This document shows, piece after piece, positions 1 through 25,931 of a DNA stretch of 32,000 bases (its first letter is position 1; each line of letters opens with the position of its first letter). Location: NCBI GenBank assembly GCA_000091165.1, contig FP565575.1, forward strand, positions 90,001 to 122,000, in the 5' to 3' direction. The notes beneath the pieces are model-generated. The model was not told the origin of the DNA and did not search any database. It saw only the letters and a program-made list of their open reading frames with translations. The translations under genes and the position numbers were made by a program. Origin of the DNA: Candidatus Methylomirabilis oxygeniifera. GTDB taxonomy: Bacteria > Methylomirabilota > Methylomirabilia > Methylomirabilales > Methylomirabilaceae.

Positions 1-372
1 ACCCAGCACGTAAAAGCAGGGGATACCATTCCCTCGACCCCGAACCATCGGGTGAATGCGGGCATTCGTTACCATCTGTATAAGTGGCTGGCGCTTTCCC
101 TCGACTTGCACTATGTCGGTTCGCAGTACCTGCGCGGCGACGAAGCGAATACTCAGTCGAAATTGAACTCGTACGTCGTCATAAACGCTGGAATCGACTT
201 GCACTGGAAGCACCTCAAAGGCTTTGTGAAGATCAACAATTTGGGGAACAACAAGTATGAGACTTTTGGGACCTTTGCGCCTAACGCCAAGGTTGCCGGA
301 GACCCAATCGAACGCTTCCTGAACCCCGCCCAACCGATCAATGTGTTAGTCGGCGCCAGTTACCGATTCTAG
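1..372 (+). CDS. TonB-dependent outer-membrane receptor, C-terminal fragment (5' end lies outside the window)
   Basis: Frame 1 is open from nt 1. Translation ...AGDTIPSTPNHRVNAGIRYH...YLRGDEANTQSKLNSY...NNKYETFGTF...VGASYRF* ends in the terminal aromatic Phe typical of TonB-dependent beta-barrels. It is paralogous to the C-terminus of the full-length receptor at 23329-25674 (shared YLRGD..N.QSK and xxYET motifs). Confidence 0.8.
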   Translation, partial: TQHVKAGDTIPSTPNHRVNAGIRYHLYKWLALSLDLHYVGSQYLRGDEANTQSKLNSYVVINAGIDLHWKHLKGFVKINNLGNNKYETFGTFAPNAKVAGDPIERFLNPAQPINVLVGASYRF

Positions 373-2229: not shown

Positions 2230-3606
2230 ATGGCGTTGAGCGTGCTGATTGTGGAGGATGAACGGAGTCTTGCGAAATCGATCGCGACTTTTTTGACCAG
2301 AAAGGGGCACAGTGTGGCGACGGCCGAGGATGGGGAACAGGGTTGGCAGCAGGCGCAGCAGCTCGACCCGCAGTTTGTCATCCTCGACTCGCGACTGCCA
2401 AGGATGGCCGGTATCGATCTCCTTCGAAAGGTCCGACAGATGAATCCGGCGACCGTGGTGATGATGACCACCGCCTATGGCACCGTCAATGACGCGGTAG
2501 AGGCAATGAAACTCGGCGCCTTCGACTATCTGGAGAAGCCGGTCGATATGGAGCGGCTGCAGATGATCCTGGAGCGAGCCGAAGAGCACTTTCGTCTCCG
2601 GCAAGAAATCGCCTACTACCGGGAGCGAGAGAGGCCGATCCTTGTGGGTCAGTCGCCGACGATCCAGAGGGTGTTCGAGAAATTTGACCAGCTCGCCACC
2701 CTGGGACGAACCGCCTCAATGCCCACCATCCTCCTGTTGGGCGAGACCGGCACGGGGAAGGGCGTAGTCGCTCGCCTGCTCCATGAACGGAGCGACCGTC
2801 GCGACAAGCCCTTTGTTGAGGTCAATTCCCTGGCGCTTCCGCCGACCTTGATCGAGGCGGAACTGTTCGGATACGAGCGCGGAGCCTTTACCGATGCGAA
2901 GACGTCCAGAATCGGTCTGTTTGAAGCGGCCGAGGGAGGGACCCTCTTCCTTGATGAGATCGGCGATCTCCCTTTACCCCTGCAGGGTAAGCTGCTGGCG
3001 GCGATCGAAAAAAAGATCATCCGGCGGATCGGAAGCGTGATCGATCGGAAGGTCGATGTCTGGATCATCACGGCGACCAATCGGGATCTCGACGCGTGCA
3101 TCAAAGACGGCACCTTCCGGGCCGACCTCTTTTACCGAATTTCCGGCATGACGATTCCACTTCCGCCGCTCCGTGACCGCGGGGACGACATCCTGTTGCT
3201 GGCACGGTATTTCGCGCGGACCGCGAGTAAGACCTATGGCAAACCGGAACCCACGATCGGCGAAGAGGCCGCCGAGGCGCTACGCCGCTATCACTGGCCC
3301 GGTAATGTTCGTGAGCTGTCACACGCCGTCGAGCAAGCGGTTCTGTGGGCGGCAGGGGAGACGTTGCACCCGGAGGATTTTCCGTTTGTGCGGACCGGCG
3401 TTGCAGTGCAGGTGGCGGATGCCTCCGGCGAAGAGGACAATGAGCATCATCACTGGAATCTCCATGAGATGGAGAAACGCCTGATCGAGAAGGCCCTGCG
3501 GCACACCGACGGCAACATTTCTCAAGCGGCCAGGCTGCTCGGCATTACGCGGGATATCCTCCGATACCGCATCGAGAAGTACCGCGGCCTCTCGTCTTCC
3601 CACTAA
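2230..3606 (+). CDS. Sigma-54-dependent response regulator (NtrC family enhancer-binding protein)
   Basis: 458 aa, starting 3 nt after the kinase stop. Receiver domain (LIVEDE...ILDSRLP). AAA+ core with Walker A GETGTGKG, sigma-54 contact loop GAFTDA (variant of GAFTGA, nt 2881-2898) and Walker B LFLDEIG. C-terminal Fis-type HTH ISQAARLLGITRDILRYRIEKY. Confidence 0.92.
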   Translation: MALSVLIVEDERSLAKSIATFLTRKGHSVATAEDGEQGWQQAQQLDPQFVILDSRLPRMAGIDLLRKVRQMNPATVVMMTTAYGTVNDAVEAMKLGAFDYLEKPVDMERLQMILERAEEHFRLRQEIAYYRERERPILVGQSPTIQRVFEKFDQLATLGRTASMPTILLLGETGTGKGVVARLLHERSDRRDKPFVEVNSLALPPTLIEAELFGYERGAFTDAKTSRIGLFEAAEGGTLFLDEIGDLPLPLQGKLLAAIEKKIIRRIGSVIDRKVDVWIITATNRDLDACIKDGTFRADLFYRISGMTIPLPPLRDRGDDILLLARYFARTASKTYGKPEPTIGEEAAEALRRYHWPGNVRELSHAVEQAVLWAAGETLHPEDFPFVRTGVAVQVADASGEEDNEHHHWNLHEMEKRLIEKALRHTDGNISQAARLLGITRDILRYRIEKYRGLSSSH

Positions 3607-3699
3607 AAACTCCGACTCGATCAGGGGTCAGGTATGACGTGTTGATGTTGTCAATCGCCATCCCTTTCGCGCGGCCTCACAGAGCTACTGCACCGTCGT

Positions 3700-3954
3700 C
3701 TAAAGATCCGGATCTCGCGTCATCTCCTCAACCAACCGCTGCAGTCCCCGACTCAATCCCCCCGGATCGTGCCCCAACATCCCGGCCATCGCGTGCATCG
3801 TCAGGTCGCCCACTTCTCGCCCGACTCCCGCCTGGAGCAACGGCAGATAGTGTTGACAATCGGCCGCATCGCGAAAGATCGGCCGGCCCTGATTGCCACG
3901 GCTGACCACGTGGGAGCTGGCGCCCGGATCATGGATGCGGGGCTTCCTCGCCAT
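3700..3954 (-). pseudogene. Internally deleted remnant of a Y1 (IS200/RayT-type, REP-associated) transposase
   Basis: MARKPRIHDPGASSHVVSRGNQGRPIFRDAADCQHYLPLLQ matches the conserved N-terminus of this family (MAR.PR..PG..YHV..RGN....F.D..D). Only ~85 codons remain and the catalytic core is absent. The last ~35 aa (AGMLGHDPGGLSRGLQRLVEEMTRDPDL) resemble the DnaA-like HTH tail some members carry. Confidence 0.6.
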
Positions 3955-4012
3955 GTCGATCATGTCCGCCATGCCATGTCACTTGTCAATACGTCACGCC
4001 TGACCCATTTAC

Positions 4013-4104
4013 ACACAATCAACGAATTGGCGGGTGAACCGTGGAGCATCTCAGGGCTGGCGTGGCGATTGCTCATTCCTCAGGTTGACGGATCTGAGGT
4101 GGCA
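4013..4104. repeat. Direct repeat R1 (~92 bp), partner at 5053-5139
   Basis: CACACAATCAACGAATTGGCGGGTGAACCGTGGAGCATCTCAG...GGCGTGGCGATTGCT...GGATCTGAGGTGGCA aligns to 5053-5139. I count ~9 mismatches and one 6-nt indel (~90% identity). The two copies bracket the vapBC module. Confidence 0.75.
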
Positions 4105-4150
4105 TGATCGAGGCTAGCGTCCTGAAAATATTCGCTGTATAGTGACTGAT

Positions 4151-4195
4151 GTCATTTCGGCCAAGCCCGCATAGCGGGCGCGAGCCGGAATCCAG
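4151..4195 (+). repeat. REP-like palindromic element (GTCATT.CGG...CCGGAATCCAG family)
   Basis: GTCATTTCGGCCAAGCCCGCATAGCGGGCGCGAGCCGGAATCCAG contains a CCCGC-ata-GCGGG hairpin. It shares both termini with the element at 5683-5734. It lies just downstream of the vapC stop. Confidence 0.4.
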
Positions 4196-4232
4196 GAAAT
4201 AACAGGAGTTCTGGATCTGGGCGGGCTGTGCG

Positions 4233-4637
4233 CTATACCGTCCAGACAGAGAGCCCGATATGGCGCGTCATGAGGTCAAAGTGCTTATCGCAGTGAAGAA
4301 GGTGGCACCGGTAGCTCAAGGCGACAGCGGCAATAAGATGATCCGTCGATGGGACGGACAAACCCTCTCGTCGAATTGTATGAGCAATCCCGTAGGCTGA
4401 TCTCCAGACTGACTCAGTAATCGGGAATCGTTGTAGTGCTTCCAAGTCCTCGCGCAACTCTCGGTACTCCGCCTCCGTCCGTGTGCCGGCGGCGAGCTCC
4501 AGAATGATCATTTCACACGTGGCTACCCGCCCCTCAGTCAACAAGCGACGGACTTCTTGTCGAACAGCGGGATCTCCAGAGGGCCGCAGGGCATGAATCC
4601 AGGCTGAGGTATCGATCAGAACCCATCCATCAGCCAT
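4233..4637 (-). CDS. vapC: PIN-domain ribonuclease toxin VapC
   Basis: 134 aa. N-terminal LIDTSAWIHAL with the first conserved acidic residue, and C-terminal LLHCDKHFDLM. It overlaps the upstream antitoxin gene by 8 nt, the classic type II TA arrangement. Confidence 0.85.
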   Translation of the reverse strand: MADGWVLIDTSAWIHALRPSGDPAVRQEVRRLLTEGRVATCEMIILELAAGTRTEAEYRELREDLEALQRFPITESVWRSAYGIAHTIRREGLSVPSTDHLIAAVALSYRCHLLHCDKHFDLMTRHIGLSVWTV

Positions 4638-4833
4638 CGGCGCGAAGCTTGGCGAGTTTCCTCGGAGTTAAGTCCAGAGGAAAGTGGCCAAGTTTTCCAA
4701 GGAGACGCTCGATCCGCTGCTGGCGGATAAGGGCCTCCAGAGAGCGGTGGATCACCTCCTTCTTCGTCTTGGCCTTGGTAAGCACCTGCGCCTGCTTGAG
4801 GAGCGTGTTGTCGATCTCTAGCGTTGTTCTCAT
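4630..4833 (-). CDS. vapB: Type II antitoxin VapB
   Basis: MRTTLEIDNTLLKQAQVLTKAKTKKEVIHRSLEALIRQQ is the typical VapB-antitoxin N-terminus. ATG 4833 has AGGAGG 7 nt upstream. The ORF-track start at 4854 lacks an SD. Confidence 0.8.
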   Translation of the reverse strand: MRTTLEIDNTLLKQAQVLTKAKTKKEVIHRSLEALIRQQRIERLLGKLGHFPLDLTPRKLAKLRADG

Positions 4834-4855
4834 TGTGGAACCTCCTGTATGCATA

Positions 4856-4884
4856 AAACTAGACCGATCTTTATGCTATGTCAA
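4856..4884 (-). promoter_or_regulatory. Putative sigma-70 promoter of vapBC
   Basis: On the minus strand: TTGACA (4884-4879), 17 nt, TAGTTT (4861-4856), followed by AGGAGG and the vapB ATG. Confidence 0.5.
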
Positions 4885-5052
4885 GTTTCTTCGGTCTGGT
4901 TTGTCGGGACTTGAGCCTGCCGCCTGGCTGTCGGAGGAAGGGCCCTGAGGCAGTACGCCACGTGGGCTTTCTCCCAATACCAACCGTATAGCGCAAGAGG
5001 GGAGCGGAGATGCGCCCATTGTCCGTCATCTCCCTCGACGGCCCACGTAAGC

Positions 5053-5139
5053 CACACAATCAACGAGTTGGTGGGTGAACCATGGAACATCTCAGATCTG
5101 GCGTGGCGATTGCTCCAGGTAGATGGATCTGAAGTGGCA
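5053..5139. repeat. Direct repeat R2 (~87 bp), partner at 4013-4104
   Basis: See R1. This copy abuts the integrase remnant. Confidence 0.75.
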
Positions 5140-5393
5140 GCCCCCGCGGCAAGCCACGGGGAATGAACCCCAGGTGGATTCAAGAGTTGCTGGGCCATCG
5201 GGATGTGAGCACGACGATGATCTACACGCACGTGTTGAACCGGGGCGGACGGGAGGTCAATAGCCCCGCTGGTCGACTCGGCTGCAAACTGAAGAGACCA
5301 TTGGAGTCTGCCGGAATAGCTGACAATTTCTTGTTAAGTATGGAAAAAGCTTGTAGGATTTGTAGCAATCGCAAAACCAACCAGTGGAAATAA
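5133..5393 (+). pseudogene. C-terminal remnant of a tyrosine recombinase of integron-integrase type
   Basis: ...[40 protein letters not shown] carries the catalytic-Tyr box [14 protein letters not shown] and the downstream LNRGG.xV.SP tail characteristic of IntI-type integrases. An in-frame stop lies at 5130-5132. The upstream ~270 codons of a normal integrase are absent. Confidence 0.7.
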
Positions 5394-5682
5394 GCTGGCC
5401 AATCTACCCAATAGTTCGACCCTGACGTTCGAAGCTCACAACGGGTGACAACCAGCGTCTTGTGAGGTACTCCCAAGCATCAAGACAAGAATCGGGGTTG
5501 GTGAAAGGAGGATTGAGCCGCAAAGCAACCGTCCGAGCATCTCCTCAGCGCACTCTTCTTCCGGGCCAACGACTGCATAGATCGATGAGCCTCTCCTCAG
5601 TGCCGAATCCTCAATATCCGCGCCAATTCTCCCGCCTTTCTCATGACCTGTTCTACATAACGACATTAGTCTCAGGCAATTT

Positions 5683-5768
5683 GTCATTCCGGGCTTGACC
5701 CCGGATCGGGTCCGGGGAAGGTTCCGGAATCCAGTACATTTCTAGATTCCCGCTTTCGCGGGAATGAC
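5683..5768 (+). repeat. Composite REP/MITE-like palindromic element
   Basis: It starts GTCATTCC and ends GGAATGAC (terminal inverted repeat). Internal hairpins are CCCGGATCGGGTCCGGGG and CCCGCTTTCGCGGG. The left half is a second copy of the 4151-4195 family. Confidence 0.45.
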
Positions 5769-5979
5769 GTCCGTTGTTACGACTTACGACGCTATGAATA
5801 ATTCAATGTTCGCTATGACCCGTTATCGACCTATCTACTGGTAAGCAGCTCTGGAACTCTGCGACTCTATCAGCTTTCCCACCTTCCCAGAAACCGTGTA
5901 GGTCGCGGGAATACCGCATGTGCCGTGGGCGCGCCCATGGGCATGAAGGCCAGAGGCCAGACCCCCGCGCGCTGCGGTC

Positions 5980-6069
5980 GTCATTGCGAGCGACCGAAGG
6001 GAGTGCGGCAATCTCATCGTAGTTGCCCCGAACGACTGTGAGATTGCTTCGGCGTCGCCTCGCAATGAC
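5980..6069. repeat. Imperfect inverted repeat / hairpin element (GTCATTGCGAG...GAGATTGC family)
   Basis: GTCATTGCGAGCGACCGAAGGGAGTGCGGCAATCTC (5980-6015) pairs imperfectly with GAGATTGCTTCGGCGTCGCCTCGCAATGAC (6040-6069). The 84-aa minus-strand ORF across it is probably just its translation. Confidence 0.5.
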
Positions 6070-6288
6070 ACGGGGGACTTTCTGAGCAATACCCCATGCG
6101 GCGACGCCGCACCACGGCGGATGAAAATGCTGGCTGAGGGAGAGTGGTGCCCGAGATGTCGGGTTACGCTGCGCTAACCTGACCTACGGCTGCTCCCGCG
6201 AGGGTCCACCTGCCATGCTGTGCCGCCGACAGAGGCGACGGTGTGAGTTCAACTGCAATATTCTGGTTGAAAGTCTGAGAAAGCGCCC

Positions 6289-6480
6289 GTCTGCGTGATA
6301 ATCCACACGACTCTCGTCGTGTATGCGAAAGTTCGCCCATTCACTCCTCGTAAGGTCACACGCACGGTTCCATCAGCATCGTGCCGATCGTTCGTTTTCT
6401 CAGCTGAGACAAGGGTTTACGAGCGCTTCTGCGACTACGACGATAGCCGTCAAAGGCGTGGCATCCCGCTTGCTAATCAT
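6289..6480 (+). promoter_or_regulatory. mxaF control region: conserved block with candidate enhancer site and sigma-54 promoter TGGCAT-cccgc-TTGCT (6459-6474)
   Basis: It aligns colinearly with 17501-17694. The blocks GTCTGCGTGATAATCCACA, CACACGCACGGTT and the -24/-12 element TGGCATCCCGCTTGCT are identical. TGCGAAAGTTCGCCCATTCACTCC (6324-6347, near-palindrome GCGAAAGTTCGC) differs from its partner at one position (G vs T). The promoter is ~170 nt upstream of ATG 6644. Confidence 0.65.
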
Positions 6481-6643: not shown

Positions 6644-8449
6644 ATGCGATTGCACATGAGGGGCGCGAGAGGCATGCTGCTTGTCGGTGGTATGCTTCTC
6701 CACTTAACTATGACATCGTCCGTGGCCTCTGCCAACGAAGAGCTCATCCGACTTGCCAAGGATGAACGCAACTGGGTGATGCAGACGAAGGACTACACCG
6801 TCCAACGATTCAGTAAGCTGGACCAGATCGATACGAGCAACGTCAAAAACTTGCAGCCGGCCTGGTCTTTCTCCACCGGCGTCCTCCACGGCCACGAGGG
6901 GGGTCCGCTCGTCGTCAACGGGATCATGTATGTCCATAGCGCATACCCTAACAACGTCTACGCGATCGATCTGGAGCATCCGGAAAAGATCATGTGGGAG
7001 TATCGGCCGAAGCAGAACCCGGCGGCTAGGGCGGTCGCGTGCTGCGATCTGGTCAACCGGGGACTGGCGTACGGTGACGGCAAGCTCATCCTGAGCACCC
7101 TGGATGGCCAGCTCATCGCTATGGACGCCAAGACCGGCAAAGTGATCTGGAATGTCGAGACGGCAGATGTCTCCGTCGGCCAGACGCAAACGCAGGCCCC
7201 CTTTGTCGTCAAGGATAAGGTGATTATCGGCTCCGCCGGCGCCGAACTCGGCGTGCGCGGCTACGTTACCGCCTTCAACCTCAAGGACGGCAAGAAGGTA
7301 TGGCGGGCCTTCGCCACCGGTCCGGACAAGGACATCCTCCTCGACAAGGATTTCAACAAGCAGAATCCCCATTACGGCCGATTCGGTCTTGGTCTCAAGA
7401 CCTGGGAGGGAGATGCCTGGAAGATCGGCGGCGGGACTAACTGGGGGTGGTATGCCTATGATCCGAAACTCGATCTGATCTATTACGGCTCCGGCAATCC
7501 GGCCCCGTGGAATGAAACGATGCGCCCTGGCGACAATAAGTGGACGATGACCATGTGGGGTCGCAATCCGGACACCGGCCTGGCCAAGTATGGCTATCAG
7601 AAGACCCCACACGATGAGTGGGACTACGCCGGTATCAACTACATGATGCTGACGGATCAGGTCATTAATGGCAAGATGACCCCCCTTGTCACTCACCCGG
7701 ATCGCAACGGGATCATCTATACCCTAAACCGGGAGACTGGAAGCCTGGTGGCCGCTGACAAGATCGATCCCAGCGTGAACTGGACGAGAAAGGTCGATCT
7801 GAAGACGGGCATAGCGATCCGGGACCCTGAATTCAGCACCCGGATGGATCATAAGGCGCGCGGCATCTGCCCCTCTGCTATGGGATATCACAACCAGGGT
7901 CTCGACTCCTACGATCCGCGCTCAGAGATCTTCTTCATGGGCGTCAATCACATCTGCATGGACTGGGAGCCGTTCATGCTTCCATATCGGGCAGGGCAGT
8001 TCTTCGTCGGCGCGACGCTGAGCATGTACCCCGGGCCTAAGGGGTATCTGGGGGAGGTCAAGGCCTATGATGTCAAGACCAACTCCATGAAGTGGGAGAA
8101 GGCTGAGAAGTTCTCCGTCTGGGGCGGCACCATGGCCACCGCCGGCAATCTCGTCTTCTACGGCACGCTTGACGGGTGGTTTAAGGCGCTCGATTCCGGT
8201 AGCGGTGAGGAGCTGTGGAAATTCAAGTTGCCCTCCGGTGTTATCGGCCATCCGATCACGTATGAGCACAACGGTAAGCAGTATGTCGCCATCTTGTATG
8301 GGGTTGGCGGCTGGCCTGGCGTCGGGCTTGTCTTTGACCTGAATGACCCCACCGCCGGCCTCGGCTCAGTCGGCGCCTTCAAGGAGTTGGCAAAATACAC
8401 CAAGATGGGCGGTGGACTCATGGTCTTTGCGCTTCCAGAGGGTCGTTGA
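6644..8449 (+). CDS. mxaF: PQQ-dependent methanol dehydrogenase large subunit, Ca-type (MxaF)
   Basis: Signal peptide [30 protein letters not shown], and GGGGGAGGAG SD before ATG 6644. Vicinal Cys pair [11 protein letters not shown]. Active-site [10 protein letters not shown] (D-Y-A at 7622-7630), which lacks the extra lanthanide-binding Asp. It is followed by mxaJGI. An in-frame ATG with its own SD exists at 6533. Confidence 0.93.
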
Positions 8450-9877: not shown

Positions 9878-10162
9878 ATGGCAGCACAACGAATCGGTTT
9901 GCGTCTTTCGATCGGGCTCAGCCTTTTGGCCGCTGCATCATCGGCTGTTGCCTACGATGGGACAAAATGCAAAGAGCCCGGAGCATGCTGGGAGCCCAAG
10001 CCGGGCTATCCGGCGAGGGTTGCCGGAAGCAAGTATGATCCCAAGCATGATCCCAAGGAGGTGGCGAAACAGGAACTGGCCCACAAGGCGATGGATGAAA
10101 GGAACGAGAAACGCTGGAAGCATTTTCAAGAGACGGGTGTCTGGAAGTACGATGTGAAGTAG
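9878..10162 (+). CDS. mxaI: Methanol dehydrogenase small (beta) subunit MxaI
   Basis: After a signal peptide (…AAASSAVA), YDGTKCKEPGACWEPKPGYPARVAGSKYDPKHDP...MDERNEKRW matches the very conserved MxaI core (YDGT.CK.PG.CWEPKP.YP..V.GSKYDP.HDP). AGGAGA SD lies before ATG 9878. Confidence 0.9.
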   Translation: MAAQRIGLRLSIGLSLLAAASSAVAYDGTKCKEPGACWEPKPGYPARVAGSKYDPKHDPKEVAKQELAHKAMDERNEKRWKHFQETGVWKYDVK

Positions 10163-16307: not shown

Positions 16308-17309
16308 ATGTGTCGGCGTTCACGTCTGTTCCGTCTTGCATCGGCGGCGCTTCTGTTTGGCGTCGGCACCACGGCATCGGTACGGGCCGAGTATGCCTAC
16401 ATTACCAACCAGGGCGACGACAGCGTCTCAGTCGTGAATATCGAGAAAGGGGAAGTCATCGCGACCATCGCGGTAGCCGATGCGCCTGTGGGTGTGGCGA
16501 CCACACCGGACGGTACGCATCTGTACATCACGCACCCCGAGGCGGGACTCATCTCGGAAATCGATACCGTGACACGAACGGTAGTAAAGACCATCGACAC
16601 CGGGGGGCAGCCATTTGGTATTGCGGTTGACGACACCGCCCCGGTCGCCGGCAACAACGCGCAGACCCGCCGGTTACTCTTTGTCACTGATTGGAGCCGC
16701 AACGCCGTTATGACTGTAGACCCGGTGAGAGGAGTGGTGATCGATCTGATCCATGCTGGAAAGTCGCCCGCCGGGATCGCCCTCGACCGAAGGGCGCGGC
16801 GCGTATTTGTCGCTAACCGCGAGAGCAATACGCTCACGGTGCTGGATGCGGATGTGCCGCGCAGGTATGCGGACATACCGACAGGCCGGGCGCCTTTCGC
16901 TGTGGCGCTGGTGCCCAACGGGGAGCGCGTGTACGTCGGCAATGTGCAGAGCGGGGAACTGACCGTGATTGACGCGAAAGCGCTCGATGTGGTTGCAACG
17001 GTCAAGGTCGGCCGCTTTCCTTACGGCATCGCCGTTACGCCTGACGGCGCGCGCGTCGTCGTTGCCAACCAGCAGGACCACAACATCACGATAGTGGATG
17101 CCTTGTCGCTGCGTACGGTCGGCAACATCCGTGTCGGTCGCCATCCCGACGGGGTGGATATCACCGGTGACGGCAGCCATGCACTGATCGCAAACTGGTT
17201 CGATGACTCGATTTCCATTATCGATCTCAGCACACTGAAGGAGCGAACGCGAGTCAAGGCTGGAAAGGGGTGCCGCGCCTTTGGGTCATTTATCGTGCGT
17301 AATCGATAG
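16308..17309 (+). CDS. Secreted seven-bladed YVTN beta-propeller protein (PQQ-catabolism-associated type), paralogue 1
   Basis: Signal peptide ...TTASVRA-EY. Seven repeats of the pattern YVTN/.....V.VID........I.VG..P.G.A..PDG..(V)YV. It starts 3 nt after the mxaD stop. Paralogue at 22338-23297. Confidence 0.8.
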   Translation: MCRRSRLFRLASAALLFGVGTTASVRAEYAYITNQGDDSVSVVNIEKGEVIATIAVADAPVGVATTPDGTHLYITHPEAGLISEIDTVTRTVVKTIDTGGQPFGIAVDDTAPVAGNNAQTRRLLFVTDWSRNAVMTVDPVRGVVIDLIHAGKSPAGIALDRRARRVFVANRESNTLTVLDADVPRRYADIPTGRAPFAVALVPNGERVYVGNVQSGELTVIDAKALDVVATVKVGRFPYGIAVTPDGARVVVANQQDHNITIVDALSLRTVGNIRVGRHPDGVDITGDGSHALIANWFDDSISIIDLSTLKERTRVKAGKGCRAFGSFIVRNR

Positions 17310-17328
17310 AGTGGACGCGACGCATGGG

Positions 17329-17476
17329 ATCGGTGGTGGGGGCTATTGCATGAGGCAGGTGTAATTCCACACACACCCCGACGTTCCTCAAGCGGTATCC
17401 CGACATCGAATGGGCTGTAAGTGCTTGAATAACCTGATGATCGGAGCCTGCCGCAGCAGTTGGCATAGTCATTGCT
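17329..17476 (+). promoter_or_regulatory. Sigma-54 regulatory module, copy B, ending in TGGCAT-agtca-TTGCT (17461-17476)
   Basis: 148 bp, ~77% identical to 517-662 (the kinase upstream region). It has a near-consensus -24/-12 element and lies ~340 nt upstream of the xoxF ATG, immediately upstream of the second promoter block. Confidence 0.6.
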
Positions 17477-17500
17477 TAATTAGCAAACTTAGGAGAGCCT

Positions 17501-17694
17501 GTCTGCGTGATAATCCACAGGCCTACGGTCGAGGTGTGCGAAATTTCGCCCATTCACTCCATCGCCCAGCCACACGCACGGTTGTGCGCTCAACGTGTCG
17601 ATCGTCAGTTTCCCCAGCCGCGACAAGACTTTGCCTGCGCTCCTGCAACTGCATTGATGGCCATCGAGGGTGTGGCATCCCGCTTGCTGATACC
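17501..17694 (+). promoter_or_regulatory. xoxF proximal control region: palindrome GCGAAATTTCGC (17538-17549) plus sigma-54 promoter TGGCAT-cccgc-TTGCT (17673-17688)
   Basis: It is colinear with the mxaF upstream block 6289-6480 (see that feature). The -24/-12 element is identical to the mxaF one. The palindrome lies ~135 bp upstream of GG(-24). Confidence 0.65.
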
Positions 17695-17813
17695 CAGTCG
17701 CTTGTGACAGTCCGGATACTCGTCTCGCCTACTTTGGGGAAGGGAGTGGAAGGACAGATCGGGGCGATAGTTTTCAGTAAGCGGTTCAACACACAGAGGA
17801 GGGAGTGCAGATC

Positions 17814-19718
17814 ATGGGGAAGCCGTTATCCGGTTCTACGATGGCAGGCATGATCGCCGGCGCGCTCATGCTGGCTATCGCTTCTGGCAGTGCGCTCGCC
17901 AATGAAGAGATCGTTCGGGCGAGCAAAAATCCTGATCTGTGGCCCGCGCCGGGCCGGGATCTGGCCATGACGCGTCATAGCCCGCTCAAAGACATCAATA
18001 CCGCCAACGTCGGGAAGCTGCAGATGATGTGGTCGCAATCCACCGGTGCGTTGCGTGGCCATCAGGGTCAGCCGATCGTGGTCGAGGTGGCTGGAACGCC
18101 GATGATGTTTTTTGTGAGTCCCTGGCCGAATATCGTGCAGGCGTTGGACCTGTCCGATCCTGATCATCCGAAGCAGGTGTGGAACTACAAGAAGAAAACC
18201 GACCGTGATGAGTTGGCGGTGACTCGCGCGTGTTGCGATACGATTAACCGGGGCCTGAACTATGCCGACGGCAAGGTGGTCTTTCATACCCTCGACGGAT
18301 ATGTCATCGCGCTGGACGCCAAGACCGGCAAAGAGATTTGGACGGTCAAGCATGCCTGGTCGGATAAGGGTGAAACGATTACCGGCCCGACGCTGATCGC
18401 CGAGAATAAGGTCATCATCGGGTTCGGCGGCGACGAGTTCGCCGCGCGCGGCCGGGTGACCGCGTATGACCTGAAGACCGGCAAGCAGGTGTGGAACTGC
18501 CACAGCACCGGGTCCGACAAGGATGTGTGCCTGACCCCGGAGACCAACAAGGCCAATCCGCATTACGGGACGTACGGCAAGAACCTCGGCATGATCACCT
18601 ATCCCAATGACGAGTGGAAGATCGGCGGTGGCGCGCCCTGGGAATGGTTTACCTATGACCCGGAGTTGAGGCTCGTGTACGTGCCGACGGGCAACCCCGG
18701 GCACTGGAGTCCATCCTATCGGTGCGGTGAAACCGGCGCAAACCTGACTCACGAAAAGTGTAACCAATACGACCCCGAGTTGCGCAGCGGCAGATGGGAC
18801 AACAAGTGGGCGATGACGATCTTCGCCAGAAAGATCGATACCGGCGAGGCGGTATGGGCGTACCAGATGACCACCTTCGACCAGTGGGACTACGACGGCG
18901 TCAACGAACCCGTCCTGGTGGACATGAAGGTCGACGGCAAAATGCGCAAGACGCTGGTCCACTTCGACCGTAACGGGTTTGCCTATGTGCTTGACCGTGC
19001 CGATGGGACTCTGTTGCGCGCGCATAAGTTTTTCCCCCTCAACTGGGCCGAGAAGGTCGACCTCAAGACCGGCCGTCCGGTGAAGATCAAGGAGCATTCG
19101 CCCTTCGCTCGTCATGTCAGCACGCAGGTCTGCCCGTCTTCGCTTGGCGCCAAGAACCAACAACCGATTGCGATCGATCCCAAAGAACCGCACATCGCCT
19201 ATGTGGCGACCAACTGGTGGTGCATGGAATACGAGCCGCAAGAGCGCACCCACACCCAGCAGGGCATGCTCTATGTCTTTGCGAACGTCTTCACGTATCC
19301 GATCGAGAAGGGTGTCGCGAGCAAGGTGCAGAAGTTCAACGTGCTGACCGGCGAGACCGAGTGGGCTATTCCGGATGCCTATCCGGACTGGGGCGGCATG
19401 CTGACGACCGATGGCGACCTACTGTTCTACGGCAGCCTGAGCGGAGATTTTCGCGCGGTCGATCGGAAGTCCGGCAAGGTCCTGTGGAGCCGTAAACTGG
19501 GCTCCGGCATCATCGGCAACCCGATCACGTACAAGATCAAGGGCAAGCAGTACGTGTCGGTATTGGCCGGTATCGGCGGCTGGATCGGTCTGCCGGTGAC
19601 GGCCGAGCTCGACTTTGACGACAAGTATGGAGCCATCGGCGCCACCGCTATGGCCAAGCTGACCGGGCTCGATAAGATTCCGCAGGGTGGCGTGCTCTAC
19701 ACCTTCCGTATCGATTGA
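17814..19718 (+). CDS. xoxF: PQQ-dependent methanol dehydrogenase, lanthanide-type (XoxF), copy 1
   Basis: GGAGGG SD lies 10 nt before ATG 17814. The GTG at 17805 is too close to the SD. Signal peptide ...ASGSALA-NEE, vicinal Cys TRACCDTINRG. Active-site FDQWDYDGVNE (D-Y-D at 18888-18896) carries the additional Asp diagnostic of Ln-dependent XoxF. No small-subunit gene follows. Confidence 0.93.
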   Translation: MGKPLSGSTMAGMIAGALMLAIASGSALANEEIVRASKNPDLWPAPGRDLAMTRHSPLKDINTANVGKLQMMWSQSTGALRGHQGQPIVVEVAGTPMMFFVSPWPNIVQALDLSDPDHPKQVWNYKKKTDRDELAVTRACCDTINRGLNYADGKVVFHTLDGYVIALDAKTGKEIWTVKHAWSDKGETITGPTLIAENKVIIGFGGDEFAARGRVTAYDLKTGKQVWNCHSTGSDKDVCLTPETNKANPHYGTYGKNLGMITYPNDEWKIGGGAPWEWFTYDPELRLVYVPTGNPGHWSPSYRCGETGANLTHEKCNQYDPELRSGRWDNKWAMTIFARKIDTGEAVWAYQMTTFDQWDYDGVNEPVLVDMKVDGKMRKTLVHFDRNGFAYVLDRADGTLLRAHKFFPLNWAEKVDLKTGRPVKIKEHSPFARHVSTQVCPSSLGAKNQQPIAIDPKEPHIAYVATNWWCMEYEPQERTHTQQGMLYVFANVFTYPIEKGVASKVQKFNVLTGETEWAIPDAYPDWGGMLTTDGDLLFYGSLSGDFRAVDRKSGKVLWSRKLGSGIIGNPITYKIKGKQYVSVLAGIGGWIGLPVTAELDFDDKYGAIGATAMAKLTGLDKIPQGGVLYTFRID

Positions 19719-19813
19719 TCGTGTCACGATCCCGAATGCGCTGTCGATCTGATGGTTGCCGGCGGGTGGCATCAGTCCACCCGCCGGTGCCGTCGTATGT
19801 GAGGTCGATTCGT

Positions 19814-21532
19814 ATGTCGTTGTTGAAGCAGTGCGGAACCGTACTCCTCGCCTGCGCGCTCAGCGTCACGGTCGCGCCTGCGTTTGTAATCGCCGACATC
19901 GGGCATGATGGGGGCGCGCCCAGCGTCAACGTTGCGCCTGCCTCTGCAACCGAGGGCAGCGCGTTGCTGCGGGTGTGCGCCGATCCCGGAAATATGCCGC
20001 TGTCGAATAATAAGGGAGAAGGCTTCCAGAACAAGATCGCAGAGATCCTCGCGCAGGCGATGGGCGCGCAGCTTACGTATTACTACCGACCGTATCTGGA
20101 GCGAGGCCTCACCAGCCAAACCGTGGATGCCGATCGGTGTGACATGCTGATGGATATACCGTCGGGCGAGGAACGTCTGCTGACCACCAAGCCGGTCTAT
20201 CGCAGTACCTTTGTGCTGGTCTACCGCAACGACAAAGGATACGCCTTCAAGGGTCTGGACGACCCCAGATTACTCAACGACCTCAAGGTCGGCGTCTTCC
20301 AGCATTCCGCGGCGCGGCAGGTATTGCAGGAGCGCGGCCTCGCACGCGGCAACACCATTGTGCATGCCGTCAGCTACGATACCGATGTCAACCCCGAACG
20401 GCAGCCGTCACGGCAGATCCGACAGGTGATCGACGGCCGACTGGATGTAGCTGCCATCTGGGGGCCGATGGCCGGCTGGTACAAGGCCGTCGAAGGCGCG
20501 CCGCTGACGATCCTGCCAATGAACCTCATGGATGATGCCACGCCATTGGAGTTTGAGTTGAGCGTGGGCATGCGGAGGGGCGCCGAGGAGTTGAAGACCA
20601 GGATCGAACAGGCACTGGTGCGCGAGCAGGCGCGTATCCGCCGGACATTGGAGGAGTACGGGGTGCCGCTGGTCGAATGCGCGCGGTGTCTGGTGTCGGG
20701 CACGCTGCCTTCGCATGGGCCTTACACGCCGCCCGCGCCCGTTACGGCAACGTCCCCACCGGCGGCGGCGCCCGACATGACGCAGGTGGCCTTGCAGACC
20801 GACGCCGCGCTGGCCGGCGGCGGGACGCTCGATGAGGAGTTGCACTACGCAATCCTGGCCAGTCAGCCCAAGCGGGCCGACTACCTGATCGCGCGTGGTG
20901 CCGATGTTAACGGCCGGGATGCGCAGAACCAGACGCCGCTGATGACGGCGGTCATGCACGGTCACGAACCGGTAGTCGCTCTCTTGCTGAACCGCAAGGC
21001 CGATCCGAACAGGGCGGACAACGACGGCTGGACCGCCCTGATGCGCGCCGTCCAGCGCGACGACCCTACCATGGTGCGCCTGCTGGCCGCACATGGCGCC
21101 GACCCCGAAGCGATCAATCGGAACGGCATGAGCGCGCTCACCATGGCGGCGCTGCACGGCAAGAGCCTAGCGGCAGCCGCCCTGCTGGAAAGCGGGGCAA
21201 AGGTTGACAGTGCGATCGGGACGGCGCGCTACACGCCGCTGATGATTTCGGTGTTCTCCGGCACGCAGCCTGTCGCACAGGCACTGTTGCGATATGGCGC
21301 GCAGGTCAACGCCCGTAACGGCGGCGGTCTGACGGCGTTGATGATCGCCGCGGCCTCTAATCGGCCAGAGATGGTTGCGCTGTTGCTCGGCGCAGGCGCG
21401 GATGCCGCACTCAAGGACGCAGAGGGGAGGACCGCGCTGGCGCTGGCGCGAGAGCGCGATGCCGCCACTGTCGTCAGCCTGCTCACGGGAAGGTCGGCCG
21501 TAGGCAGTGCGGCGAAGCCTGCTGCGCAGTAG
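19814..21532 (+). CDS. xoxJ: XoxJ/MxaJ-like periplasmic binding-fold domain fused to a C-terminal ankyrin-repeat domain
   Basis: ATG 19814 has GAGG 9 nt upstream. Signal peptide MSLLKQCGTVLLACALSVTVAPA. LLRVCADPGNMPLSNNKGEGFQNKIA...VYRSTFVLVYRND aligns with MxaJ (8449-9342). A Pro/Ala linker (~20700-20777) follows. Then come ~6 ankyrin repeats (~20831-21486), e.g. QTPLMTAVMHGHEPVVALLLNRKADPN and GLTALMIAAASNRPEMVALLLGAGADAA. Confidence 0.85.
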   Translation: MSLLKQCGTVLLACALSVTVAPAFVIADIGHDGGAPSVNVAPASATEGSALLRVCADPGNMPLSNNKGEGFQNKIAEILAQAMGAQLTYYYRPYLERGLTSQTVDADRCDMLMDIPSGEERLLTTKPVYRSTFVLVYRNDKGYAFKGLDDPRLLNDLKVGVFQHSAARQVLQERGLARGNTIVHAVSYDTDVNPERQPSRQIRQVIDGRLDVAAIWGPMAGWYKAVEGAPLTILPMNLMDDATPLEFELSVGMRRGAEELKTRIEQALVREQARIRRTLEEYGVPLVECARCLVSGTLPSHGPYTPPAPVTATSPPAAAPDMTQVALQTDAALAGGGTLDEELHYAILASQPKRADYLIARGADVNGRDAQNQTPLMTAVMHGHEPVVALLLNRKADPNRADNDGWTALMRAVQRDDPTMVRLLAAHGADPEAINRNGMSALTMAALHGKSLAAAALLESGAKVDSAIGTARYTPLMISVFSGTQPVAQALLRYGAQVNARNGGGLTALMIAAASNRPEMVALLLGAGADAALKDAEGRTALALARERDAATVVSLLTGRSAVGSAAKPAAQ

Positions 21533-25844: not shown

Positions 25845-25871
25845 GCAATGACGATACTTGGGGGCTTATAG

Positions 25872-25931
25872 CAATTCGTCAATCCCACCCAGCCGATCAA
25901 TGTTCCGGTCGGTGCCGGTTACCGATTCTAA
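25872..25931 (+). pseudogene. 20-codon 3' remnant of a TonB-dependent receptor gene
   Basis: QFVNPTQPINVPVGAGYRF* compares with the end of the receptor at 1-372 (RFLNPAQPINVLVGASYRF*). The DNA of 25878-25931 matches 319-372 at roughly 43 of 54 positions by hand count. An in-frame stop lies immediately upstream at 25869-25871. Confidence 0.55.

Follow-up and report, generated by a model that had tools for sequence, protein, structure and literature searches.

A duplicated module resembling a sigma-54 promoter and enhancer precedes both the mxa and the xoxF1 methanol dehydrogenase operons of Candidatus Methylomirabilis oxyfera

How methanotrophs choose between calcium-dependent and lanthanide-dependent methanol dehydrogenases (MDH) is an active question, and the circuits known to govern this choice come from a few Proteobacteria and express the two enzymes reciprocally. 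Here we describe a locus of the nitrite-dependent methanotroph Candidatus Methylomirabilis oxygeniifera (M. oxyfera below) that predicts a different logic, in which one regulatory module sits on both MDH operons. The locus was analysed as a stretch of 32,000 nucleotides (nt) (assembly GCA_000091165.1, contig FP565575.1, positions 90,001 to 122,000 of the forward strand), which we call the window and to which coordinates refer unless another locus is named. It carries mxaF (6644-8449, + strand), which encodes a calcium (Ca)-type enzyme with the DYA motif and heads an mxaFJGI-RS... operon, and xoxF1 (17814-19718, + strand), which encodes a lanthanide (Ln)-type enzyme with the DYD motif. Each gene is preceded by a copy of an element that we term block B. 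We consider it likely that block B is a sigma-54 promoter together with its enhancer, that it was copied as a module onto the mxa and xoxF1 operons, and that an enhancer-binding protein encoded at the same locus (EBP1) acts on both copies to induce the two operons together.

The two copies of block B (6282-6480 and 17494-17694, both on the + strand) each comprise a putative upstream activating region followed by a putative sigma-54 promoter. Their global alignment contains 149 identical columns out of 201 (74%) and scores 93, against -39 ± 6 (maximum -17, 48% identity) for shuffled sequences, so that the real pair has z > 20. An earlier reading made from the letters alone (the sequence-only reading) had proposed that 6289-6480 and 17501-17694 are colinear homologues, and the alignment bears this out; every string and coordinate that it gave for the block was exact on re-checking, and the distance from the first shared block to the GG of the -24 element was again 171 nt in the mxaF copy and 173 nt in the xoxF1 copy. 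Outside the block identity falls to background, with 50% in the 200 nt upstream and 46% in the downstream 5' untranslated regions (5'UTRs), and the similarity ends about 6 nt past the -12 element. The pair is not a leftover of the ancient split between mxaF and xoxF, because the coding sequences behind it are much less alike: 54% identical in nucleotides, 43% at third codon positions and 41% as proteins. Inside the block conservation comes in patches, among them unbroken matches of 19, 17, 16 and 13 nt. Among the shared strings are a 19-mer, GTCTGCGTGATAATCCACA (6289-6307 and 17501-17519, + strand, its sole two occurrences), a 13-mer, CACACGCACGGTT (6357-6369 and from 17571, + strand), and TTCGCCCATTCACTCC (from 6332 and from 17545).

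Near its downstream end each copy carries the same -24/-12 box, TGGCATCCCGCTTGCT, at 6459-6474 before mxaF and at 17673-17688 before xoxF1 (both + strand). A third box, TGGCATAGTCATTGCT (17461-17476, + strand), lies further upstream of xoxF1 in another element, block A. These three are the exact matches to TGGCAY-N5-TTGCW in the window, where 0.05 would be expected, and all of them are intergenic and on the + strand. Their GG and GC dinucleotides are exactly 10 bp apart and satisfy the sigma-54 consensus spacing, as had been noted for the motif shared by the two block B copies. Boxes are found 126-170 nt before the start codons of mxaF and xoxF1 and 95 nt before the gene of the sensor kinase HK1. 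From their positions, transcripts are predicted to start at about 6485 for mxaF, with a 5'UTR of about 159 nt, and at about 17699 for xoxF1, with a 5'UTR of about 115 nt.

Upstream of these boxes lie dyads of the type GYGNAATTNCRC, which we regard as candidate activator-binding sites. In the mxaF copy of block B the dyad is GCGAAAGTTCGC (6325-6336), 135 nt upstream of the GG; in the xoxF1 copy it is formed by TGTGCGAAA and TTTCGCCCA (17535-17552) around a perfect 12-bp core, GCGAAATTTCGC (17538-17549). A possible second dyad, GTGATAATCCAC, which departs from the pattern at two positions, is contained in the 19-mer (6295-6306 and 17507-17518), 30 bp upstream of the first dyad before mxaF and 31 bp upstream of the core dyad before xoxF1. 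IHF-like sites between dyad and box were dropped, being two-mismatch matches only that differ between the copies.

Block A, which the sequence-only reading had not reported, would bring the regulator operon into the same circuit, and it supplies xoxF1 with tandem boxes. One copy (499-665, + strand) precedes the genes of HK1 and EBP1 and the other (17311-17480, + strand) immediately precedes the xoxF1 block B, so that the order is A-B-gene at xoxF1 and A-HK1-EBP1-debris-B-gene at mxaF. The two copies are 75-77% identical and both end in a sigma-54-type box, which in the regulator-operon copy is TGGAATAGTCCTTGCA (647-662); their dyads are GTGTAATTTCAC (547-558) and GTGTAATTCCAC (17359-17370). 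A dyad of the GYGNAATTNCRC type is therefore present in all four blocks, 100-136 nt upstream of the sigma-54 box. Our first search for a motif common to blocks A and B (GTGWTAATYCCACA) found nothing, and a NifA-like TGT-N10-ACA in block A was set aside as too short for meaning.

The operon behind the first block A encodes a sensor histidine kinase, HK1 (757-2226, + strand), with a periplasmic helical sensor and HAMP, HisKA and HATPase domains, and a sigma-54 enhancer-binding response regulator, EBP1 (2230-3606, + strand). The NtrC-type activator previously placed 3 kb upstream of the module was thus correctly recognised: EBP1 has a REC domain, an AAA+ domain with the GAFTDA loop (Sigma54_activat, 2.4e-59) and an HTH_8 domain. 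Its best NCBIfam matches, AtoC, NtrC and ZraR, all fall far under their cut-offs, so no named regulator is orthologous to EBP1. Between the block A promoter and the regulator operon, the leader contains a conserved hairpin of about 20 bp (688-744), preceded by a conserved GTTTCACGCTCAT, with equivalents in three related loci (L089, about 7995-8050; L093, about 1375-1430; L100, about 190-245) and three pairs showing compensatory changes across the four sequences. The hairpin is missing from the xoxF1 copy of block A and may be an attenuator or a stability element.

What is kept and what changes at this locus can be followed in three uncultured related lineages, which we reached by a search with EBP1 and by contig look-ups. 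In a protein collection clustered at 90%, no other homologue of XoxF1 exceeds 76%. A contig with an EBP1 at 89% identity is also known (P0122). The gene order is TonB-PepSY-A-EBP-beta-propeller-HK-mxaFJGIRS in L093 and HK2-EBP2-TonB-PepSY-A-EBP-beta-propeller-HK-toxin/antitoxin-xoxF1-xoxJ/ankyrin-cytochrome c-TonB in L089, L090 and L099; L100 has the same xoxF1 arrangement as L089. The MxaF and XoxF1 proteins of these relatives are 88-96% identical to those of the window, and the mxa and xoxF1 cassettes are 85-88% identical at the nucleotide level by blastn. This homology begins 80 nt inside mxaF, after the signal peptide, in the comparison with L093 (6725), and 21 nt before the xoxF1 ATG in the comparison with L089 (17793). 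The upstream regulatory DNA of the relatives is at background (47-53% identity), EBP1 and HK1 are only 62% and 52% identical, and their genes stand in another order. The enzyme cassettes have been kept, and regulatory DNA and regulators were exchanged between lineages.

In this otherwise unalignable promoter DNA, the GYGNAATTNCRC dyad and a sigma-54 box recur before mxaF, before xoxF1 and before the regulator operon of the three lineages, which supports the proposal of the sequence-only reading that the palindrome about 135 bp upstream is a likely enhancer site. Before mxaF of L093, the box TGGCATCTCACTTGCT is of the same type as both block B boxes of M. oxyfera, the dyads GTGAAATTTCAC and GTGAAGTTCCAC lie 32 bp apart, and TCTGCGTGA from the 19-mer region is also found at the 5' edge of the upstream region. 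The xoxF1 genes of L089 and L100 have a conserved but different box, TGGCCCGATTCCTGCT, with the dyad GTGAAGTTTC(G/A)C 146 nt upstream, and the regulator operons of the relatives carry perfect TGGCAC-N5-TTGCT boxes with GTGAA(A/G)TTCC(C/A)C dyads. In the M. oxyfera blocks, as in the MDH promoters of L089, L093 and L100, the distance from dyad to -24 element is 101-156 nt; at the regulator-operon promoters of the relatives it is 67-68 nt. L099 gives no footprinting information, because it differs from L089 at only two positions upstream of xoxF1. The C-terminal helix-turn-helix of EBP1 (SQAARLLGITRDILRYRIEKY) is almost identical across these lineages and different in the paralogue EBP2, which fits a shared recognition sequence.

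The TonB-receptor promoter associated with EBP2 served as a positive control. Tandem GGTTGAAWTCAACC dyads lie there about 100 nt upstream of a CGGCA(C/T)-N5-TTGC box, and dyads and box are conserved between M. oxyfera (1289-1319 and 1407-1422 of locus L081, box CGGCACGCCCATTGCT, 3.4-2.0 kb upstream of the window start) and L089 (4884-4914 and 5003-5018). The TonB-dependent receptor whose C-terminal end opens the window (52-372) has its own sigma-54 box, and a second sigma-54 response regulator (472 aa) is encoded immediately upstream of it. As negative controls, none of 80 gamma- and betaproteobacterial mxaF loci (70-74% protein identity) had a sigma-54 box within 600 nt upstream, nor did these loci supply an orthologous promoter, and the region upstream of the second lanthanide-type gene of the window, xoxF2 (30804 to the window end, DYD motif), contains neither block, box nor dyad.

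To what extent does the dyad follow the boxes? We scanned 77 kb, consisting of the window, L089, L093 and L100, for GYGNAATTNCRC with at most one mismatch. Eleven of the 17 matches fell in the 2.5% of the DNA less than 200 nt upstream of sigma-54 boxes (binomial P = 3e-14), as did 5 of 9 in the two loci examined after the pattern had been fixed (P = 3e-6), but these P values overstate independence, because several promoter regions of the relatives are homologues of each other and the tested sequences had in part served to define the pattern. Further points also weigh against block B being the promoter and enhancer that we propose. The block is known in two copies only, the box of the regulator-operon block A is weakened (TGGAAT), and EBP1 and block B of M. 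oxyfera have 2.7 kb of mobile-element debris between them. Blocks A and B do not differ among the eight available M. oxyfera assemblies, and therefore no footprinting is possible within the lineage. We infer the presence of rpoN only from the two sigma-54 activators at the locus, and a literature search for rpoN in Methylomirabilis yielded nothing useful. EBP1 homologues adjoin xoxF, mxaF, other pyrroloquinoline quinone (PQQ) dehydrogenases or pqq genes in five of six distinct contexts, including xoxF in Methylacidimicrobium, two PQQ dehydrogenase operons in L097 and pqq biosynthesis genes in L098. In Methylacidiphilum, however, the kinase/activator pair is located away from xoxF, and upstream of Methylacidimicrobium xoxF we found no convincing sigma-54 box, only a weak CGGCAC-N5-CCGCA; for both reasons the verrucomicrobial link is one of synteny only. 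Before the pqq genes of L098 (8440-8560) there is a perfect 14-bp inverted repeat (GGTGATTTGACCCA / TGGGTCAAATCACC) together with a TGGCAC-N5-TTGTT box, which suggests that PQQ synthesis is under sigma-54 control in a further lineage.

The distance between EBP1 and block B, the second sigma-54 two-component system just upstream, and the EBP1 homologues that are not always beside xoxF (that of L097 apparently serves a different downstream operon) would all be expected if the promoter and enhancer were real and the activator were EBP2 or a protein encoded elsewhere. In that case the system could respond to something unrelated to lanthanides, such as methanol, formaldehyde, oxygen/NO or nitrogen status. 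We judge this unlikely: EBP2 has its own conserved and different dyads at the TonB-receptor promoter, the GYGNAATTNCRC dyad precedes the EBP1 operon itself in every lineage, and the dyad tracks the conserved recognition helix of EBP1 in a protein whose remainder is only 62% identical.

It is very unlikely, in our view, that block B is instead a neutral remnant left by segmental duplication or gene conversion in the fairly recent past, with a sigma-54-like box that goes unused. An old neutral duplicate could attain 74% identity, there are two copies only, and the patchiness of block A is not significant (permutation p = 0.45). That of block B, in contrast, exceeds the expectation in the same kind of test (p = 0.012 when the squared runs are summed, p = 0.009 when the top three are taken), with box and dyad fully retained. 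A neutral relic also accounts poorly for homology that stops right after the -12 element, for a box-plus-dyad arrangement that recurs in lineages with unalignable promoters, and for exact sigma-54 matches that so exceed the number expected and are each correctly placed.

A sigma-70 scan returned one weak match, CTGAGA-16-GATAAT at 6275-6302, and this pair could be taken to mean that block B is a sigma-70 promoter with a long leader, using the GATAAT of the 19-mer as its -10 element, or a platform for other regulators; the conserved stretches CCCATTCACTCC and CACACGCACGGTT are indeed not explained by the sigma-54 model. We give this explanation even less credence. The GATAAT scores as a weak -10 in the mxaF copy only, the xoxF1 copy lacks an acceptable -35, and the scan found zero sites in 17250-17850 and zero at xoxF2. 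An Rfam scan of the whole window gave zero family matches, and one-nucleotide indels between the copies exclude a common reading frame. Least credible of all is that chance put a dispersed repeat or miniature mobile element before both genes, for although mobile-element remnants and REP-like palindromes lie just upstream of the mxaF copy and several short-read assemblies break there, the block occurs twice in 32 kb with the same orientation and distance relative to the gene start, no B-type copy was found in the related loci examined, no inverted repeats bordering it turned up in a search that covered spacings of up to 60 nt, and assemblies run unbroken through both copies.

We therefore return to block B as a sigma-54 promoter and enhancer answering to EBP1. 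The circuit that we infer from direct observations (the homology and its bounds, the consensus matches, the enrichment of the motif across lineages and the gene neighbourhoods) has transcription from the boxes, binding by EBP1 and the identity of the signal as its conjectural parts. Sigma-54 RNA polymerase would sit on TGGCAT-N5-TTGCT as a closed complex until HK1 phosphorylates EBP1. EBP1 would then bind the dyad GCGAAA(G/T)TTCGC about 135 nt upstream of the GG, possibly also GTGATAATCCAC 30-31 bp further up, oligomerise, loop the DNA and open the promoter at the expense of ATP. Through block A, with its dyad GTGTAATTTCAC and sigma-54 box, EBP1 would probably autoregulate the HK1-EBP1 operon, and the second block A at xoxF1 would provide a tandem promoter or an extra enhancer. 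The expected outcome is that the mxa operon and xoxF1 are induced together rather than reciprocally, with xoxF2 wired separately.

Since mxaF and xoxF1 carry copies of the same module, they are probably switched on together by the neighbouring two-component activator, in joint activation rather than opposition. The sequence-only reading had pointed out that a Ca-type and an Ln-type MDH share this architecture; the types hold by their DYA and DYD motifs, and the biochemistry adds a rationale. According to the summary of Wu 2015 given in PMC6094997, the enzyme purified from M. oxyfera consists of XoxF1 and MxaI, and the comparative genomics of that paper attributes to the other described Methylomirabilis species an XoxF2-type enzyme only. 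MxaI is encoded in the mxa operon (mxaI, 9878-10162), and the hybrid fits co-induction: if XoxF1 were co-expressed with MxaI and the Mxa accessory proteins, this puzzling composition would be explained.

The arrangement also suggests how the module came to be where it is. On the simplest history, a B-type promoter would be ancestral at mxaF; in the M. oxyfera lineage the A...B ends of an A-regulator-B-mxaF unit would have been copied before xoxF1, where they took the place of another kind of sigma-54 promoter. A single copy event is favoured because the mxaF box of L093 is of the B type and the xoxF1 box of L089 and L100 is different, and because identity is about the same in the A pair and in the B pair (74-77%). 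The locus is a case of promoter-module replacement, in which well-conserved cassettes had their promoters and regulator swapped, and it provides a binding motif that can be tested and predicts where two transcripts start.

Lanthanide availability is a candidate for the signal, because TonB receptors flank the cluster and the relatives have a PepSY protein, because a second sigma-54 two-component system drives a TonB receptor, and because there is a precedent in Methylobacillus flagellatus (PMC9988556). Residues ~60-78 of HK1 (gene region 757-1400) form an acidic periplasmic loop, E-x-PDYLTG-x-DPDAKEE, whose residues E62, D65, D71 and P72 do not vary among the NC10 lineages and Methylacidimicrobium; we regard this loop as a candidate metal-binding site. 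A wider proposal, which we put forward tentatively and consider doubtful, is that HK1/EBP1 is an unrecognised sensing system of the sigma-54 type for PQQ-dependent MDH in NC10 bacteria and some verrucomicrobial methanotrophs, and that it co-activates a horizontally acquired mxa operon and xoxF1. The acidic loop would point to possible lanthanide sensing by HK1, and the locus would embody a non-reciprocal 'lanthanide switch' built for the assembly of the XoxF1-MxaI hybrid.

The remainder of the locus bears marks of mobility and recombination. The debris between EBP1 and block B (3607-6280, about 2.7 kb) contains a 90-aa unannotated open reading frame (3700-3972, - strand) that by eye resembles an IS200-type transposase fragment, a VapBC toxin-antitoxin pair (4233-4854, - strand), an integrase fragment corresponding to the C-terminal part of a tyrosine recombinase (5163-5393), a 63-nt direct repeat that is 90% identical (4012-4074 and 5053-5115) and REP-like palindromes (5690-6060). 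The 63-nt repeat also contains two sigma-54-like boxes, at 4058 and 5099 (TGGCGTGGCGATTGCT), which were rejected as chance occurrences. About 296 nt 5' of the mxaF block B is the end point of four independent short-read contigs. The MxaF and XoxF1 proteins are identical in assemblies GCA_002634395.1 and GCA_009026205.1 and in the original enrichment reads.

A beta-propeller gene (16308-17309) precedes the second block A, and xoxF1 is followed by a xoxJ-ankyrin fusion, a cytochrome c gene and a second TonB receptor. In the fusion (19715-21532), an XoxJ-like periplasmic binding protein carries a C-terminal ankyrin-repeat domain, and in the NC10 relatives and Methylacidimicrobium the corresponding place behind xoxF is likewise taken by ankyrin-repeat proteins. 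A fossil of about 79 nt (25853-25931), located 3' of the second TonB receptor's stop codon, resembles the C-terminal coding end of the first receptor (313-371); L093 has it too, and it hints at past recombination between the two TonB receptor genes.

How does this circuit compare with those already known? A familiar counterpart is NtrC at the enterobacterial glnAp2 promoter, a sigma-54 promoter with upstream activator sites in a comparable geometry. The M. oxyfera promoters likewise combine a -24/-12 box with dyads more than 100 bp upstream, and candidate sites there and before mxaF of L093 are 30-32 bp, or about three helical turns, apart. EBP1 also has the REC, AAA+ and Fis-type helix-turn-helix organisation of NtrC, is paired with a kinase and belongs to an apparently autoregulated operon. 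The dyad sequence differs from that of NtrC (GYGNAATTNCRC in M. oxyfera), and the targets here are methanol oxidation genes.

Two-component control of PQQ alcohol dehydrogenase genes is shared with MxbDM/MxcQE/MxaB of Methylorubrum extorquens, MxaY of Methylomicrobium and PedS2/PedR2 of Pseudomonas putida, and so is a role in the choice between Ca and Ln enzymes. To our knowledge, the response regulators of these systems have no sigma-54 interaction (AAA+) domain. EBP1, unlike them, is organised as REC-AAA+(sigma-54)-HTH_8, and the canonical circuits give reciprocal expression. A relative of PedR2 is described as LuxR-type in PMC6115532, and in Methylosinus sporium genes of methane and central carbon metabolism have mapped promoters of the RpoD type (PMC12403871).

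The control of mmoX, a soluble methane monooxygenase gene, by MmoR is closer in that a C1-oxidation operon has a sigma-54 promoter and a dedicated enhancer-binding protein; the enzyme is different here, and no duplicated promoter module is known to be involved there. MmoR is not known to be a two-component response regulator. MmoR/sigma-54 control of mmoX appears as Stafford 2003 in the list of PMC10992012. Among PQQ alcohol dehydrogenase genes, sigma-54 dependence has been reported for exaA of Azospirillum brasilense (Singh 2017, as cited in PMC6115532), with a regulator of the LuxR type, unlike the AAA+ enhancer-binding protein EBP1.

A parallel is also found in M. flagellatus, where a sigma-54 promoter was predicted for xoxF, with a deletion phenotype, and where two La-induced sigma-54 regulators adjoin xoxF (Mfla_0343) and a TonB receptor (Mfla_1254) (PMC9988556). 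Compared by gene arrangement, M. oxyfera similarly has sigma-54 activators beside an MDH gene and a TonB receptor (EBP2-TonB1, HK1-EBP1-...-mxaF and A+B-xoxF1). In M. flagellatus a PepSY protein binds lanthanides and mxaF is down-regulated by La (PMC9988556); a PepSY (lanpepsy-like) protein is also encoded near the locus in the relatives of M. oxyfera. Unlike mxaF of M. flagellatus, which has no reported sigma-54 promoter, the Ca-type operon of M. oxyfera shares the promoter of xoxF1. The sequence-only reading had placed sigma-54 control of MDH genes outside the textbook model, and this stands for the Methylobacterium model but not in general, given the precedents of xoxF (PMC9988556) and exaA (as cited in PMC6115532). 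The M. oxyfera circuit is of a known kind, a standard sigma-54/enhancer-binding-protein circuit applied here to MDH genes; what would be new is a duplicated module that gives one promoter to MDH genes of both the Ca and the Ln type, together with the replacement of such modules between lineages.

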